DNA of 63,598 bases, the filler included, from Reticulomyxa filosa (taxonomy: Eukaryota > Protista > Foraminifera), in NCBI GenBank assembly GCA_000512085.1. It is 14 parts of 14 records of this genome, joined end to end, with 100 filler letters (N's around TTAATTAATTAA, not from the genome) between each part and the next. Parts side by side here need not be neighbours in the genome. Positions count along the whole stretch, not along the records: positions 1 to 5,861 come from ASPP01007625.1; 13 more parts are not named here. One strand, 5' to 3'. Positions within the stretch are counted from its first letter, which is position 1, and each line of letters opens with the position of its first letter. This document shows positions 1 to 8,836 of the stretch, one piece after another. Made by a program: the position numbers and the translations under genes. The notes under the pieces are model-generated. The model saw only the letters and a program-made list of their open reading frames with translations. It searched no databases and had not been told where the DNA came from.

Positions 1-22
1 TTTTTTAAAAAAAACATATTAC

Positions 23-651
23 TTGTTTTAATTCTTCAATCACCTCCACGACAGCTTTGAGGAATCTTAAATTATTTTTTTTTGTCCCGTCTTTTTTTTT
101 TTTTTTGCTTAAAAAAAAAAAAAAAAGAAAGGGGGAGAGATTCATTGAGGAACTTGGAAAATTTTTTTTTAACTGTTCTGCTTGTTGGTGCCCCGAATCA
201 GATTTATTGAACCCCAAGCCAAATCGCTTGCCACCGTCGTCAGTGAAACTATGGAAGTTTTTTGATTTTTGTTTGTATACGCATTCGCGGGTGCAGTTTG
301 CATTCAACAACACTTGCTGTGCTTTTACTGTCCATGCCAGCAGTCGATAGGAATTGTCAGAACTGTCACAACACAAATGGACCTATGCACACATTATGTT
401 ACATCAATATTCGTACAAAAAAAACCAACAACAAAAAAAAAGGGGTTACCACAACCGTATGTACTTTGCATCCCAAACCGGATCACATACATATTCAATG
501 ATTAACTTCTGACCACCCGCCTTCTCCTGACACTGACCATGTTCGATCTTCTAAATGGTATACCACTGCGTAACACGATTGGACTGATTTCTCTGTTGTT
601 TCCGAAGTACCGATCGTCGCTCTTCCTCGTGGGGCTTCAGAGGGATGCTCG
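23..651 (-). CDS. EVH1/WH1-domain protein (Ena/VASP-like), partial, spliced
   Basis: Splicing GT-AG introns (e.g. 383..506) gives EKSVQSCYAVVYHLEDRTWSVSGEGGWSE|VHLCCDSSDNSYRLLAWTVKAQQVLLNANCTRECVYKQKSKNFHSFTDDGGKRFGLGFNKSDSGHQQAEQ|FLKAVVEVIEELKQ. This follows the EVH1 pattern (W..GFSRV, FHQW, YGLNF, C-terminal helix). Start codon not resolved; the gene runs off the window edge. Confidence 0.75.
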
Positions 652-2410
652 CTTATTTGTATATATTCACACAAATGAATTCCAGAAAAAAGATGACAGA
701 CAGAGAGCGTGTAATCACCTCATCATTTTAATATTCGTTTGTTAATAAATGTAGATTTTTTCTTTTACGTACTTTGTGAAACGCTGACAGCATAGTGTTG
801 AGACACAAAATCGAATAATATATTCATTCTTGGAAAATGATTTGCGTTTTAGTGTTTACATCTTTTAGATATTGGGAAATAATAAACTGTTGCAATAGAC
901 CAATATATTTATTACATTTTGAAAGCATTACGAAATTAGGCAAAAATTCTTAATAAAAAAACGAGAACACTTGTGAATAGTTGTTATCATGTTAAACACG
1001 TTGATTTTTTTAAAAGATGGTGATAAGTAAGTTTACGATAATTAGTAAAATAACTTTTTAAATTAAAAGTATGGCAATTATTTTTTTAAAAAGTGTTGTT
1101 CATGTGCTGATTTCTCGGAATCCCGTATATATTTATATTTCAAAATACTGTATTGTTGATTTGGAAAAATTGTTGTAGCTGTCAAGTGGCATTTGATTTT
1201 GATTATTTTTTTGTTTTTTTATTTTTCAAACTAGCGTACATAGAAACGAAATAAGCATATATCATTGTTACTTTATATGAATCACACTTTTTATTTTGAA
1301 ATAAATTATTTTTGGTTTTCTAGAATAACAACATTCTAGTTGTTTGTTGGACAAAAATGTGGAAAACAATTTTACAGTATAACTTTGATGTAATTTTGTT
1401 GTAAACTTGTAGAGTTGCAACATAACAAACGATACAGTCAATGTGATATCAAAACATAAATGCATTGAATTTGTAGCACAGATTTATGTTGTTCACAATC
1501 TGTGCGGTTATTTAGAAAAGAGAAAAAGTTTATTTTGGCCAATTATGGCAAATAATTAAACATGCACTTTAATGTTGTGTTCATTGACAAATAGATAAGC
1601 ATAATGCATACAATACAATGATCTGTCGTGCGTTCGAATTAATACTTGTAATCTTTTCCAAAAAAAAATTGGAAAAATCTGTTGCTTTTTAGTTTTTATT
1701 CATTTGTGGTCCGTCACTTCAAATTTGACATGAAATAAAGTGACAACAGCTGCACCAACTTTTTTGTTGAAGCTGCTCGAAAGAACACTTTTTTATATTA
1801 CATTAATCCTTAAAAGCAGATCTTTTAACAATTATAAATTTATTCAAATTTCTTTATTTCAATCACACATCTATTATATTGGAAATACAAAATTAAAATC
1901 ATAATGTGGAGAAATACACAAAAAAGTTTTAAACCAACTCAACTTTCATGTGGACAAAACAATCATGTACAATGAAGTTAAATCTTTTCCCATCTTTTTA
2001 AAGAAAAAAGAAATGAAAAAGTTTGCACAAATTGAAAAAATATCGAATAACGCAATACAACTATATCACACATAACATTAATGGTAACGGATTTAAAAGC
2101 TAAAAATATTGACAAACACAGTCTGAAAGACACATTCAGCATTACCAAAGTCGAGTGGAACAAGCTCCATCTTATTGTTGTCGCTGTTTTTATTTTTGTT
2201 AGTTGATCTATTCCAAACAAAAATAAAGGTATTTGTTAAAAAAAATGTTATTCAACTTACGACGTCTATTCAACTTTTTAATTGAAAAATTTATAAACAA
2301 GGCCGTTACTAGTTTAAAAATTGAATATAACACCCGAACACACTTGATTTGCTCTCATTTATATTGGAAACAAGCAAAGTAGTGTGGAACAAAAACAAAG
2401 AGAAAAAGCT

Positions 2411-5400
2411 TTAAGATTGCGTGCCTTGGCACCACTCTGCAAATTTTGAGTACCAAAACAATGATTTGTTGTCAGTTTGAATCTTTGCCTGAACACACAG
2501 CGATTGATCAATGGGCGGTTTGTCAACTTGCTCTTCTTGTTTATTCTTCTGGCTTCTGCTCAAAAACCATTCCAACAGACGGTTTTCATCGACAGACTGA
2601 ACCCCCTCTAATGGAGTCCTTCCTTTCTGTGCAAAGAAGAATCATTTCATCGTTTTAGCTTAAATAAGAAATGGACAGAGAAAAAAAGGTTTACATCACA
2701 CCTCATCTTTCAAGGTCCATAATTCCCCGAGAATTTCTTTTGGGATGGAATCTAAAATGAATTGTGCAGCGAGTAAATTTGGCTGACATCGGATGAGTTG
2801 ATGAAAAGGCGTTCGTTTGGACTGTTTTTAAAAAAGATTTTACAAGCATCGAATTGTCTAATTTATATGTCCACTTATTCGTGGACTCTATCTTTTTTTT
2901 TTTTTTTGTAGTGTTTACCTTATTGGTCGCTCTCCATAGTCGTGGCATCATATCTTTTGAAACGAATTTGAGCATGACTTCAACCACCTTAAAATTTTGT
3001 TGAAAGCTGACAAGATAGTGGAACGGTGTTTCTTCGAACTTTTTTGTTTTGTTTTTGTTTCATTTAGTTAAGCACTTGTTTTTCAGACCTTCTTTTTTTT
3101 TTTTTTTTTATTAAAAAGAAAACTCACTTGGTTTGTAGTTGCCCAAAGAGTATCTAAAAAAGAGTGAGGGATCAAATCCAAAATGAACTGTGCATCGCAA
3201 CCTTTTGTCAAGCGCTGTGCTAAATAGTGGAATGGCGTATCTTGCTCCTGATGTAATAAAAACAGAATAAGACAAAAGCTTGCAGCAAGTATGGATGGCA
3301 ACACAAAAAAAAGAGATATACGTTATTTCTTGCAGTAAGCAATGATTGAAAAAGGGTGTCATTACTTTGAACTAATCCGAAGATATATTTTAAAACCTCA
3401 ATTTTGGAATACCGAACAAGATCATGACATAAAGTATTGCGCTATAGATTTGAAGATTTTTTTTATTTTTTTTTTATTTTAACATTACGTATAAATATGT
3501 ATAAATATATGTACATATATATATGTATGTATATGTATATGTATATATATGTATATGCATGTATAAAAAGAAAACTCCAGGTCGCTGTTGCAATAACACA
3601 TTTCGATGGTTTTGAATGAAGTGGAACGGGAAATGAATAAGCAATTGCAGTAACATATCCTCATTCATCCCGGCAATCATAAGCTTATGTTCAAAGGAAA
3701 GTTTGTGTTTGGATTGAAGACATTCCTGGTAAAACTCATCTGCTCGGATGATTTCATACAAAGGATGGACTTTGTCCTTAAAGGTAAGCATGGGTTGAAT
3801 AATGAACTCGATCTCTCCGACAATGGCAATCCATTCCCCGGAAGGGGACTCTTTTTTGTTCAAAATGATGTTGATTTTGATGTCCTTGTAGGAACGGAAT
3901 TGGACCTGTTCGGAGGTAAGATTGGCAAACTCAGCGAATCCGTTTTTCAATCGCATGATTTCGAGGCGAATGTCGGGATGGTTTCGATTGGCATCGCTGT
4001 GGACAAAGCGCAAGAAGGCTTGAATCGCGCGAAGATAATCACGAACGTGATGGAGGGTCAAGGAGCATCGTAGCAGATCAATGATCTGAGCACTGGTCGG
4101 GAACTGATATCCGGACATTTGATTATATTCCAATTGCGCCTTTTCAACACAGCGAGAGATATGTTTGACACGTGCAATTTGTAAATGTTGTCGATCTTCT
4201 TTGAAGATGCGCTGCATTAGATCGGTGAAGCATTCGTTCATCAGATGAGCTCGAGTTATCAGCTGCGACAAATACGTAGTCAAATCATACATCTCCACGG
4301 GATGGAACGAGGCATCAGTCGAAAATACGTGCATGTATTTCAGCTGTGACTCGTTCATCACAGACTTGACTCCAAAGTCGATTCGATCCTGTCGCCAATA
4401 TGCCTCGTTCGGATAACGCTCATTCGTATACTTCAATTGACACAGCTGTCGAAACGTATCCGTATCCTTGTCAAACATGGAGGCTCGAATGCGCTGCTCT
4501 TCTTTCAACAGACCTTGCACTTCTTCCTTCTTTGCTTTGTGTCTTATTGCATCGAACAAAATGGACTCGGTCTTTGTCTTTGTCTTTGTCTTTGTATTTG
4601 TATTTGTATTTGTATTTGTATTTGTATTTGTCGTGCCTTCCAAATCACGTCGAGTCCATTTCATTAGCATTATCTCGCTTTCCAAAAACGTCTTCTGAAG
4701 GTACGTCCAATCTTTTTTATTTTCGTGCGCATGCTCAAAATCGATTACTTTGTCGATCGTGTCCACAATCATATCTTCTATGGTTTTTGTCGTTGCTTGC
4801 TGTTTTTCCTCCAATTTCAACTCCGAGTCCTTTTTTTCAGAGTCTTCTTTCGGCTGACTGGCTCTTTGCTCGTGCCACAATGTGAAGAATAACAGCTCGT
4901 TTAATAGTGGCATCTTGTCTTGAATCAGCTGTCGCATCGTCTCGCACCACAGCGTCATCACTTGTTCCTCCGATATCTTCATTTCATTGTCCTTCAACAC
5001 CTTCCCAAGATATCGAAACAGCACCTCACATTTCGATTCCAATTGGTTGTATTTTTCTCCAAACGCTTCGCTTCTTTCTGCCACTTTTGTGCGTCTTTTT
5101 TTTTTTGCCAAGTGCACAAATAAACGTATACATTATATACATTATATATATATATATATATATGTAATATATATATATATATATAATGTATACGTTTATT
5201 TGTTTTTTTTTTCACTGTTGGCAATTTGTTAATGTTTTCCCTACTTTGTGATTGAGCAGCGCAGCAATGATATCTGCGTTTTGAAAGAGCAAGGCGCGAT
5301 CGAGCACTGTTTCTCCAGTTGGTGCACAAATATGTAAGTCCACGTTGGGGTAGTTTGCCAACACGTAACGTAAAGCCTCTACATTTTCACTTTCGACGAT

Positions 5401-5861
5401 TTCAAACAATATCGTTGGCTTTTTTTTTTTTTTTTTTGGAAAAAAAAAAAAAAGGGGGGGTTTATTCGTGCAATAAACCTATGTAACAACCAGAGAACAA
5501 ACACATATGCATACACACAAAACGAAACATTAATAAGGTCTTTGCTGTAATAGTTGATATAATACTTTTCTCCAAACAATTGCAACAAAGCCAATGCTTT
5601 ATTCGGCCTGCGTTCTCCGACGTATTGTTTAAATTGCTGAAAAAACCATTTCTGTTGTTTTCATAACATATGCATGCAAACAATGAGTTCATTGCATGTT
5701 TCAAAAGTCTTTTTTTTTTTTTTTTTTTTTTGAAGATGTTTGTAACATTAAATTGCGGATCCAATTGATTGACTTGTTTTTGCAATAACGCAATTTCTTG
5801 CGTCGACATATACTTTTTCAAGTCTTCCATTTTGTTCACTTGCTTTGAGCCTTTTTTTTTT
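2411..5861 (-). CDS. Ankyrin repeats + RelA/SpoT-like nucleotidyltransferase domain + ankyrin repeats; multi-exon, probably 5'-truncated
   Basis: N-terminal ANK exon (PTILFEIVESENVEALRYVL...PTGETVLDRALLFQNADIIAALL). The large exon within ORF 3474..5117 has ARVKHISRCVEK / IIDLLRCSL / RLKNGF / SYKDIKINI / VGEIEF / HPLYEIIR. Exons 3322..3441, 3128..3247, 2919..3038, 2702..2821 and 2411..2626 follow, with TLCH/TPFH/TPLE ankyrin motifs and in-frame GT-AG junctions; stop at 2411. Confidence 0.75.
4570..4631 (-). repeat. In-frame hexanucleotide microsatellite (ACAAAT/ACAAAG)n encoding TNTNTN...TKTKTK
   Basis: Tandem tttgta/tttgtc units on the + strand inside ORF 3474..5117. Confidence 0.9.
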
Positions 5862-5961
5862 NNNNNNNNNNNNNNNNNNNNNNNNNNNNNNNNNNNNNNN
5901 NNNNNTTAATTAATTAANNNNNNNNNNNNNNNNNNNNNNNNNNNNNNNNNNNNNNNNNNNN
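5862..5961. other. Artificial contig linker
   Basis: 44 N + TTAATTAATTAA (stops in six frames) + 44 N. Confidence 0.98.
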
Positions 5962-7293: not shown

Positions 7294-7901
7294 TTAAAGT
7301 TTGTTTTCACTGATAAAAGTTGTGGCATCATATGATCCAGAACATATCATATTTGAATTATTACCAACTTCGATATTATTTACTACAAATGGTAAATATT
7401 CAACAGTATATACACAATCATTATGACTATTAAACTTGAATTTGTTGACTAGATCGAATATCACATAAACAAACACTTTTATCATATGATCCAGATAACA
7501 TTGTATTTAATAATTCATTTGATCCATATTTTACACTCAACACATTACTTTTATGTCCTTTAAAAATAATTAATTGTTTAGTTGTTTCAATATCCCATAC
7601 ACGAACAGTTTTATCATTTGACTCAGAGCAAAGAAATTGACAATTATTAAATGCTAATAATCAATACCTTTCACCAAATTTGTATGACCACGAAATATTG
7701 TGAGTAATTTTGATGATAAACGAAACGTTTCAAACATAAAAACAGTTGCCTATGTTAAATAGTGAATATGAAAATAACAACATATAAATAAACACGAACA
7801 AATGATTGACAACAAGTTTGTCAAAGTCATGAATCCATCCTAATTTAATTTTTAATACTCGGATCCAATATTGAATAATTGTTTGTATATTTTCTTCTGA
7901 C
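7294..7901 (-). pseudogene. WD40-repeat pseudogene
   Basis: Leader SEENIQTIIQYWIRVLKIKLGWIHDFDKLVVN, then FRGHTNLVKGIDY* (stop/frameshift), SNDKTVRVWDIETTKQLIIFKGH, SGSYDKSV, and a further frameshift. Confidence 0.8.
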
Positions 7902-8019
7902 TAATTCAAATCATAAATACAATAGAATCAATCTTGAAAACTTAAAATGAAGTTTACCAATGCTGATTAAACACATAAATGAATTTATTGTATAAGACTA
8001 ATTGAAAAACAACTAACAG

Positions 8020-8836
8020 CCAAAAAATGAAATAAAATTTGTTATTCAACATTGGATTCGAATTTTAAAGATAAGATTATGATCGATGACTTTGATAAAA
8101 TTATTATTAAATATGTTAAGTATATTTCTTTTTACATATGAATAACTGATAATTATGTAATTCATTTTTTCAAATAGGTAAGAGGTTTTCAATTATCAAT
8201 TGTTTTTTGCGAGGACATAACAATACAGTAAACAGTCTAAGATTTTCAGCGGATGGTAGCAAGATTGTTTCGACACTATATGATCGCACTGTTCGAATAT
8301 GGGATGTTGCGTCAGGAAAACAGCTTCAAACTTTCAGAGGACATACTGATCGAGTATTTGCTGTAAGGTTTTTATCAGATGGACATGCTGTTGTTTCATG
8401 TTTAGGTGATGGGACAATTCGATTATGGGATATACATTCTGGAATAGAGAAAAACAATTATTAGGACATTCAAGAGATATTAATTGCATAATTTTCATCA
8501 GATGGTAAAATGATTGTATCATCAAGTGATAAAATAATTAATTTGTGGAATATATAATCTGGTGAAATATTGAAACAGTTCAAAGGGCACTCTAATCGTG
8601 TAGTGCGTGCAAAATTTTCTCCAGATAATACATTTATTTCCTGTTCATTGAATAATACAATTCGAATATGGAACATTAAAACAGTAATGGAATGTGGCAT
8701 ATTGAAAGAACACTCAAATCTTGTGAATGATATAAAATATCTTCCAGATGATCAAACAATTGTACCATGTTCAAGTAATAATATAATTCGATTGTGGAGC
8801 GTAAAATCAAGGAAGAGATTACAAATATTGGGATGA
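8020..8836 (+). pseudogene. WD40-repeat pseudogene
   Basis: Damaged leader VIQHWIRILKIRL*..DDFDKII. GH...WD repeats (RGHNNTV..RIWD, RGHTDRV..RLWD, KGHSNRV..RIWN) are split across frames by indels and stops. Confidence 0.85.

Follow-up and report, generated by a model that had tools for sequence, protein, structure and literature searches.

Can a eukaryotic cytosol make alarmones of its own, and what would hold such an enzyme in check? Alarmone synthesis is, to our knowledge, held to be bacterial and plastid chemistry. Outside plants, only sporadic synthetase-only proteins are described, in Dictyostelium, ascomycetes, and diatoms, and Mesh1 is a widespread eukaryotic hydrolase without a matching synthetase in animals (PMC3153485). 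The question is raised by a gene of the foraminifer Reticulomyxa filosa, found in a 63,598-nucleotide stretch of DNA (the window) that joins parts of 14 records of assembly GCA_000512085.1. An initial annotation had read it as an ankyrin-RelA/SpoT-like synthetase-ankyrin protein, a candidate sensor-gated alarmone or toxin system. We find this interpretation partly supported, its fold call being right and its motif mapping off. Judged by its motifs and relatives, the gene represents a new form of a known enzyme: foraminifers seem to have domesticated a putative Apk/EAS-like synthetase domain and multiplied it together with ankyrin arrays.

Gene Structure

The gene lies on the minus strand at the right end of contig 1-5861 (ASPP01007625.1), its 5′ end cut by the contig end. 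About ten exons are visible, and a ten-exon GT-AG model yields 889 residues with one terminal stop at 2411-2413, the introns having 15-33% GC against 30-43% in the exons. The gene is real and the observation behind it is confirmed: all six peptides named in the initial annotation fall in one open frame (minus strand, 3477-5132), and the central exon placed at about 3740..4290 exists but is larger than proposed (exon 5 below). A phmmer search of 1.84 billion representatives yielded 431 relatives with E no higher than 1e-3, of which 186 reach 1e-10; the family work is based on the best 150 of the 431, and "rows" are the alignment rows of these. The visible gene is composed as follows.

5747..5850, minus strand: exon 1 of the visible part (sequence; gene 5′-incomplete)
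5682..5708, minus strand: doubtful 27-nucleotide micro-exon 2 (sequence only; flanking introns of 38 and 30 nucleotides; frame also kept if skipped)
5529..5651, minus strand: exon 3, leading into the N-terminal ankyrin unit (junction 3/4 spanned by 5 of 150 relatives)
5216..5418, minus strand: exon 4, two ankyrin repeats (Ank_2, E 5.6e-5; alignment to relatives P0003 and P0028)
5095..5215, minus strand: phase-2 intron, borne out as initially predicted (GT-AG, 16% GC, frame kept; BLAST segments across it in 13 of 150 relatives)
3576..5094, minus strand: exon 5, whole (1519 nucleotides; open frame 3477-5132)
4461..5094, minus strand: exon 5 linker containing a Thr-Asn/Thr-Lys microsatellite (~4570-4635) and probably helical (sequence and relatives)
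3730..4400, minus strand: exon 5 predicted synthetase domain of RelA/SpoT type, introduced by a conserved RQD (AlphaFold2, Foldseek, VIA-align, conservation)
3322..3441, minus strand: exon 6, 120 nucleotides, one 40-residue ankyrin-like repeat (sequence, relatives, shuffles)
3128..3247, minus strand: exon 7, 120 nucleotides, one repeat (same evidence)
2919..3038, minus strand: exon 8, 120 nucleotides, one repeat (same evidence)
2702..2821, minus strand: exon 9, 120 nucleotides, one repeat (same evidence)
2411..2626, minus strand: last exon, capping segment and TAA stop (junction 9/10 spanned by 1 of 150 relatives, P0001)

BLAST segments cross junctions 3/4, 4/5, 5/6, 6/7, 7/8, 8/9, and 9/10 in 5, 13, 25, 9, 4, 3, and 1 of the 150 relatives, respectively; this comparison covers junctions 3/4 to 9/10, and 1/2 and 2/3 are read from the DNA itself. 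Because all junctions between exons 3 and 10 are bridged by relatives, the ankyrin exons and the core form, as had been proposed, one gene and not separate ones. The architecture runs from two ankyrin repeats through a ~230-residue linker and the core to four to five ankyrin-like repeats and a cap. Ankyrin repeats on both sides had been claimed at the outset; the N-terminal part of that claim stands, with an exon 4 match that falls below Pfam's curated cut-off, whereas none of the four tail-repeat exons, scanned singly, matches Pfam, and the tail owes its ankyrin-like label to an alignment with P0001, the closest relative, which itself has a tail matching Ank_2 at E 2e-8. Exons 6-9, each exactly 120 nucleotides and phase 0, carry one 40-residue repeat apiece. 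Between 2600 and 3600 there are four open AG-120-GT exons, whereas 500 shuffles averaged 0.09 and never gave more than 2. The visible gene, its 5′ end lost at the N-run from 5862, has no Pfam match to HD, TGS, or ACT, in agreement with the initial annotation, and none to NACHT or NB-ARC, and no second copy of the core domain occurs within the window.

In four of the nine modeled introns the 12 bases before the AG hold 10-12 A instead of a polypyrimidine tract; other genes in the window likewise show A-runs preceding AG.

Predicted Fold

The core is predicted to be a RelA/SpoT synthetase superfamily (SYNTH) fold, ranking as such above other pol-beta nucleotidyltransferases, and here the initial fold call holds. 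AlphaFold2 with a 100-row alignment gave a predicted local distance difference test score (pLDDT) of 93 and a predicted template modeling (TM) score of 0.85, compared with a pLDDT of 36 for single-sequence prediction, and searches with Foldseek and VIA-align both rank RSH synthetases first. Foldseek against PDB found 34 chains at E up to 1e-3 (best E 3e-5), with low TM-scores by query (0.24-0.41); the 21 listed are all RSH/SAS synthetases, including one row titled only smu.1046c, which we presume to be such an enzyme. VIA-align, run over 48,161 chains, fills ranks 1-10 with RSH synthetases (Z 11.8-7.4), headed by SaEAS (PDB 8vx3; Z 11.8, root-mean-square deviation 3.5, 165 aligned) and including B. 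subtilis SAS2 (11.2), SAS1 (11.0), RelP (10.9), CapRel (10.0), Rel (9.9), and Tas1 (9.7); the first other nucleotidyltransferase follows at Z 7.3. Atlas features reach, at 0.92, a cluster with RelA_SpoT in 34% of its members.

Two other candidates were rejected as chance: a viral coat protein from the single-sequence PDB search (E 0.7) and Methyltransf_11 (E 0.009-0.02, below the Pfam cut-off).

Motifs and Branch Assignment

The initial mapping onto canonical RelA motifs did not survive alignment of the family. In ARVKHISRCVEK the canonical Ser position is Arg (143 of 146 rows); in the later motifs DxxR stands for DxxxxR and YxDxKxN for YxSxH, and no Arg follows ExQ; RxKxxxSxxxK, YxSxH, and ExQxR occur anywhere in 5, 5, and 1 of the 150 relatives, and all three in E. 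coli RelA. The family consensus is (G/A)P(V/I)KxxxRCxxKxxxDY, DxxRCS, RxKNGF, YxD(I/V)KxN, E(V/I)QFL, K at E+12, and HxxYxxxR, located in the gene as follows.

4125..4172, minus strand: Syn1-like motif, family PxKxxxRxxxKxxxDY, here with Arg in place of Pro (conservation, Tas1 alignment)
4068..4079, minus strand: DxxR, its Asp predicted to bind Mg and its Arg to stack on adenine (unchanged in 147 of 147 rows; roles from PMC12691689, PMC11782079)
3936..3953, minus strand: RxKNGF strand motif, its Lys likely equivalent to SaEAS K154 / Apk1 K353 (correspondence by eye)
3870..3890, minus strand: Syn3-like loop YxDxKxN, with Lys where Apk/EAS have Asn (conservation)
3807..3815, minus strand: Syn4-like ExE, family ExQ (134 of 143 rows with Gln, none with Glu)
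3744..3779, minus strand: K (E+12) and HxxYxxxR at Tas1 spacing (conservation, Tas1 sequence)

Two residues set this copy apart. The leading Arg of ARVKHISRCVEK is private to it, 133 of 145 rows having Pro there and no row Arg; the ExE reading, correct for this copy, is not a family trait.

Compared by eye, the motif spacing fits the Apk1/Tas1-EAS-RelV branch and not RelA or CapRel-type motifs. The family matches Apk1/Tas1 in the spacing of PxKxxxRxxxKxxxDY, DxxR, ExQ with Met at +8 and Lys at +12, and HxxYxxxR (sequence from the PMC12691689 supplement). Both Syn1 KxxxRxxxK and Syn2 DxxR(x)(T/S) of the Apk branch are present (with their Arg in 143 of 146 rows at Syn1 and in 147 of 147 at Syn2); at Syn4, where the branch has ExQ and then His (Asn in Tas1), the family has no Arg, but Leu in 121 of 141 rows. 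The Apk signature is given as GxN, RYT, and YH versus SxH, AVR, and IR in RSH (PMC12226406). Vibrio Apk1-like members show VKNRF, YRD, and EVQ with Lys at +12, and in a file of 1,369 Apk1-like sequences KNRF occurs 168 times and YRD 347 times as raw, unaligned text counts (PMC12691689). The family profile aligns with the Tas1 Syn1 stretch at exact spacing, though weakly (E 0.9). One of 45 members matches the C-terminal end of NCBIfam PRK09169 over the core (E 2.3e-4), a model that we take to be XopAD-like. The family appears to work like, and probably descends from, the Apk1/EAS/RelV branch; it is not a formal member, because the comparison is by eye and because Lys replaces Asn in Syn3.

A Foraminiferal Family

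The best relative is 44% identical over the core. Among 30 relatives examined for names, 8 come from Reticulomyxa filosa, 3 from Nonionella stella, and 2 from Bolivina argentea, so that all 13 named are foraminifers; 17 are unnamed metagenomic sequences. The Nonionella and Bolivina proteins are EukProt entries, presumably transcriptome-derived; if they are, spliced ankyrin-core-ankyrin messages exist (P0020, P0022). Pfam scans of 130 of the 150 relatives found ankyrin in 58, RCC1 in 2, and WD40 in 1, and RelA_SpoT, HD, TGS, ACT, NACHT, and NB-ARC in none. An in-house ankyrin hidden Markov model (HMM), too weak to detect the repeats of the gene itself, gives at least 55 of 149. In a midpoint-rooted FastTree tree of family members only (139 of the 150 sequences, those under 190 residues dropped, most leaves without species label), the gene groups with P0001 and P0015 (support 0.98). 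The nearby paralogs P0008, P0015, P0018, and P0038 are clearly degenerate, and tail length varies, from the four one-repeat exons of the gene to more in P0001. On these comparisons the family is large, conserved, invisible to Pfam, and widely expanded in foraminifers. A literature search, with subscription journals mostly outside its scope, returned no paper on a foraminiferal or ankyrin-fused alarmone-synthetase family.

One metagenome contig (L002 1-3596, 24% GC) holds several tandem copies of part of the core, ridden with stops and frameshifts. Many paralogs per genome, differing tails, degenerate copies, and this decayed tandem contig together fit birth-and-death evolution. In P0017, P0106, and P0118 the core is joined to a WD40 propeller or RCC1 repeats, as real fusions or gene-model artefacts; P0007 and P0153 bear the source name "Ras guanine nucleotide exchange factor," probably a misannotation, their matches being ankyrin and core only.

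Farther out, diatom and bacterial hypothetical clusters look alike by Atlas (0.94-0.95), and look-alikes by structure include phage RelA/SpoT proteins and one giant-virus protein. This Hyperionvirus protein (A0A3G5A8M0, named glycosyltransferase; model match E 4e-4) suggests a RelA/SpoT-like domain in a protist giant virus. No relative was found by tblastn in phages or plasmids. Pattern-based locus scans, aimed at close relatives only, found none in viral contigs and none in prokaryotic genomes, and metagenome locus scans of the same scope found none with the single protein and one locus with the alignment. PHROGs returned single-member matches only, and a search with the full-length alignment A1 only ankyrin matches among the 60 rows listed. 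In word-index protein searches the exon had no match at near or longer lengths, and the alignment had 5.

Probable Catalytic Competence

In SaEAS, Asp121, Arg124, Lys154, Asn169, Glu182, and Gln184 are catalytic or ATP-binding, the last five common to Apk1 (PMC12691689). Five of these six (Asp, Arg, Lys, Glu, Gln) have family counterparts, mapped by eye, that are 94-100% conserved. All 21 consensus residues are present in 97 of 128 complete rows, 20 more rows differ at one, and 11 differ at two or more. Such conservation is the pattern of an enzyme under selection, and the family is thus probably an active pyrophosphotransferase.

The gene copy itself departs at two of the 21 positions, each time to a residue seen in no other row, and keeps Asp, Arg, both Lys, Tyr, Glu, and His. 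It may be weakened by its private Gln-to-Glu change; that it is dead we consider unlikely from the residues it retains.

Relation to Known Systems

Apk1/Tas1, the (p)ppApp synthetase of the P. aeruginosa type VI secretion system (PDB 6ox6), shares the predicted fold (Z 9.7), but identity is 15% and its Syn3 reads YxGxN against YxDxKxN in the family; Tas1 is a secreted bacterial effector with an immunity protein, whereas the family consists of intron-rich eukaryotic genes with ankyrin arrays. The exported synthetases (SaEAS, the top structural row at Z 11.8; VpEAS/RelV; XopAD-fused; MuF-fused Apk2) carry signal peptides or secretion domains, keep the Syn3 Asn and Syn4 His in the sequences compared, and come from a survey of bacteria only; RelA/SpoT-like toxin domains are described in polymorphic toxins and in XopAD and MuF fusions (PMC3482391). 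RelP/RelQ and the long RSH enzymes (RelA, Rel, SpoT) share the synthetase fold at Z 11.2-7.4, but the family is without the canonical RxKxxxS, DxxxxR, YxSxH, and ExQxR and has no HD, TGS, or ACT match. CapRel (PDB 7ztb) likewise pairs the fold with a possible regulatory part in one chain; it modifies tRNA and senses through a pseudo-zinc-finger, whereas the family has ankyrin repeats, whose arrangement is suggestive of gating. Diatom RSHs described in PMC6881373 are long enzymes with a chloroplast-targeting peptide, and that text mentions neither foraminifers nor ankyrin.

Eukaryotic synthetase-only RSHs and RelA_SpoT domains joined to NLRs are similarly non-plastid, the latter being attached to repeat-bearing immune receptors. 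RelA_SpoT is among the reported fungal NLR effector domains, although none of the clusters in that study matched it well (10.1101/2022.03.16.484565), and alarmone synthetases are among the effectors of bacterial NLR-like proteins (10.1101/2022.07.19.500537). Those proteins came to light through RSH or Pfam profiles and occur sporadically, and the switch of NLRs is a NACHT or NB-ARC; the foraminiferal family, in contrast, escapes Pfam, shows no NACHT or NB-ARC match in 130 members, and is widely expanded.

Proposed Mechanism and Alternatives

We posit that the core would transfer pyrophosphate from ATP to the 3′-OH of a purine nucleotide, yielding (p)ppGpp or (p)ppApp, and that the flanking repeats would hold the enzyme silent until a stress or intruder signal releases it; the protein would stay in the cytosol, a hydrophobic leader being present in only 7 of the 82 relatives whose N-terminus looks complete. 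This reading, an ankyrin-flanked Apk1/EAS-like synthetase making alarmones in the cell upon repeat release, is offered tentatively, and the same goes for the cytosolic site, the control by repeats, and the defense or growth-arrest role, which we infer and hold to be plausible but no more. Apk1, SaEAS, and VpEAS are lethal if unrestrained in the bacterial cytoplasm (PMC12691689); since free enzymes of the branch kill bacterial cells, a eukaryote with many copies would need a brake, and the flanking repeats suggest themselves for that part. Immune-receptor families are also brought to mind by the tails, which have one repeat per exon and are swapped in places, by the degenerate paralogs, and by the decayed tandem copies. 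The broader scenario, in which foraminifers took a bacterial conflict enzyme of Apk/EAS type and expanded it into an NLR-like, ankyrin-sensor-gated repertoire, its 3′-pyrophosphorylated nucleotide being possibly a new product because of the Lys and Asn peculiar to the family's acceptor loop, is one we regard as rather doubtful.

Several observations weigh against the proposed mechanism. The profile check gave no RelA_SpoT (PF04607) match for the gene at E up to 1, as for the 130 relatives; hhalign against E. coli RelA gives 0.2%, and the family HMM does not detect RelA. The four best structural matches lie within 1 Z unit, the housekeeping RelP and RelQ among them, with Tas1 seventh, and the branch call therefore rests on motifs compared by eye; nor is the Tas1 sequence match significant, since of 4 sequences retrieved at E up to 10 it is one, and three are an unrelated glycosyltransferase. 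Syn3 has Lys in 142 of 144 rows (Asn in Apk/EAS, within GxN or, for Vibrio members, DxN), with Asn two residues on in 140 of 143, and the residue four after Glu is typically Leu, neither His nor Arg, so the acceptor site would differ from those of the characterized enzymes compared. The product cannot be read from motifs, because SaEAS makes both alarmones, VpEAS only ppGpp, and Apk1 ppApp (PMC12691689), and because Apk2 with swapped motifs showed no switch of specificity (PMC12226406). In the gene copy, Glu replaces a Gln listed as ATP-binding, a change one base away and found in 0 of 143 other rows. The four tail repeats are identical pairwise at only 4-16 of 40 residues and are therefore old, not freshly shuffled. 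Finally, no immunity-like neighbor gene was recognized on contig 1-5861, nor was a ligand or partner identified.

Some of these points would suit housekeeping second-messenger synthetases, whose ankyrin scaffolds place or tune a low-rate enzyme in metabolic regulation, with no defense or suicide role. RelP and RelQ tie with SaEAS in structure, catalytic residues are strongly conserved across three foraminiferal genera, and the tails are old; yet the many paralogs, tails that vary (of 130 scanned, 1 with WD40 and 2 with RCC1), decayed copies, and motif kinship to secreted or toxic bacterial enzymes leave this fairly improbable. We give still less credence to an enzyme that keeps ATP as pyrophosphate donor and modifies another acceptor, an RNA 3′ end (tRNA-CCA) or a protein recruited by the ankyrin repeats. 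The differences from Apk/EAS do fall in Syn3 and Syn4, the acceptor-recognition motifs (PMC12226406), CapRel aligns over model residues 31-245 (Z 10.0), and the invariant RQD and RxKN elements lie outside assigned roles, but the tRNA-targeting FaRel2 keeps the canonical R-K-S-K Syn1 (PMC11782079), where the family has the Apk-type set, and FaRel2 ranks low in both Foldseek and VIA-align.

Another account concerns this copy alone: it could be a catalytically impaired paralog of an active family, whether decoy, scaffold, or early pseudogene. With two private changes among the 21 consensus residues, it joins the small class of complete rows (11 of 128) with two or more, and the nearby paralogs P0008, P0015, P0018, and P0038 are degenerate. 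Against this, its frame is intact over 889 codons, the remaining catalytic residues are kept, the Pro-to-Arg change yields the residue of RelA at that place, and each change is a single base, for which a sequencing error is possible; we judge impairment unlikely, though a serious contender. Foraminifers feed on bacteria, and an exported weapon poisoning engulfed or neighboring bacteria, as Apk1 does, can be imagined, the closest motif relatives being exported bacterial enzymes (PMC12691689). The scarcity of hydrophobic leaders and the size of these proteins, which have 800-1800 residues with ankyrin arrays and no evident route into a bacterial cytoplasm, make it highly improbable. The ankyrin-flanked cytosolic synthetase described above is the reading that we retain.

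Surroundings

The gaps of the window (e.g., 5862-5961) consist of 44 N, a 12-base palindromic linker, and 44 N. They are artificial joins, so that order across them is uninformative and the ADP-ribosyltransferase-like and WD40 frames beyond 5961 are not real neighbors of the gene. The former, on a separate contig (5964-7181, plus strand), is an intronless frame of 406 residues that weakly matches NAD:arginine ADP-ribosyltransferase (E 0.0018, below cut-off); lying in 26% GC DNA beside decayed WD40 frames (7430-8836), it looks like another expanded conflict-type family. A frame at 498-719 (minus strand), with no Pfam match, looks by eye similar to the start of an EVH1/WH1 domain.

Implications

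Gated alarmone-type signaling in a eukaryotic cytosol is perhaps an unlikely prospect. The family, from a protist lineage without plastids, nevertheless supplies concrete enzymes for testing cytosolic (p)ppGpp or (p)ppApp synthesis in eukaryotes and a possible use of these nucleotides in protist immunity.

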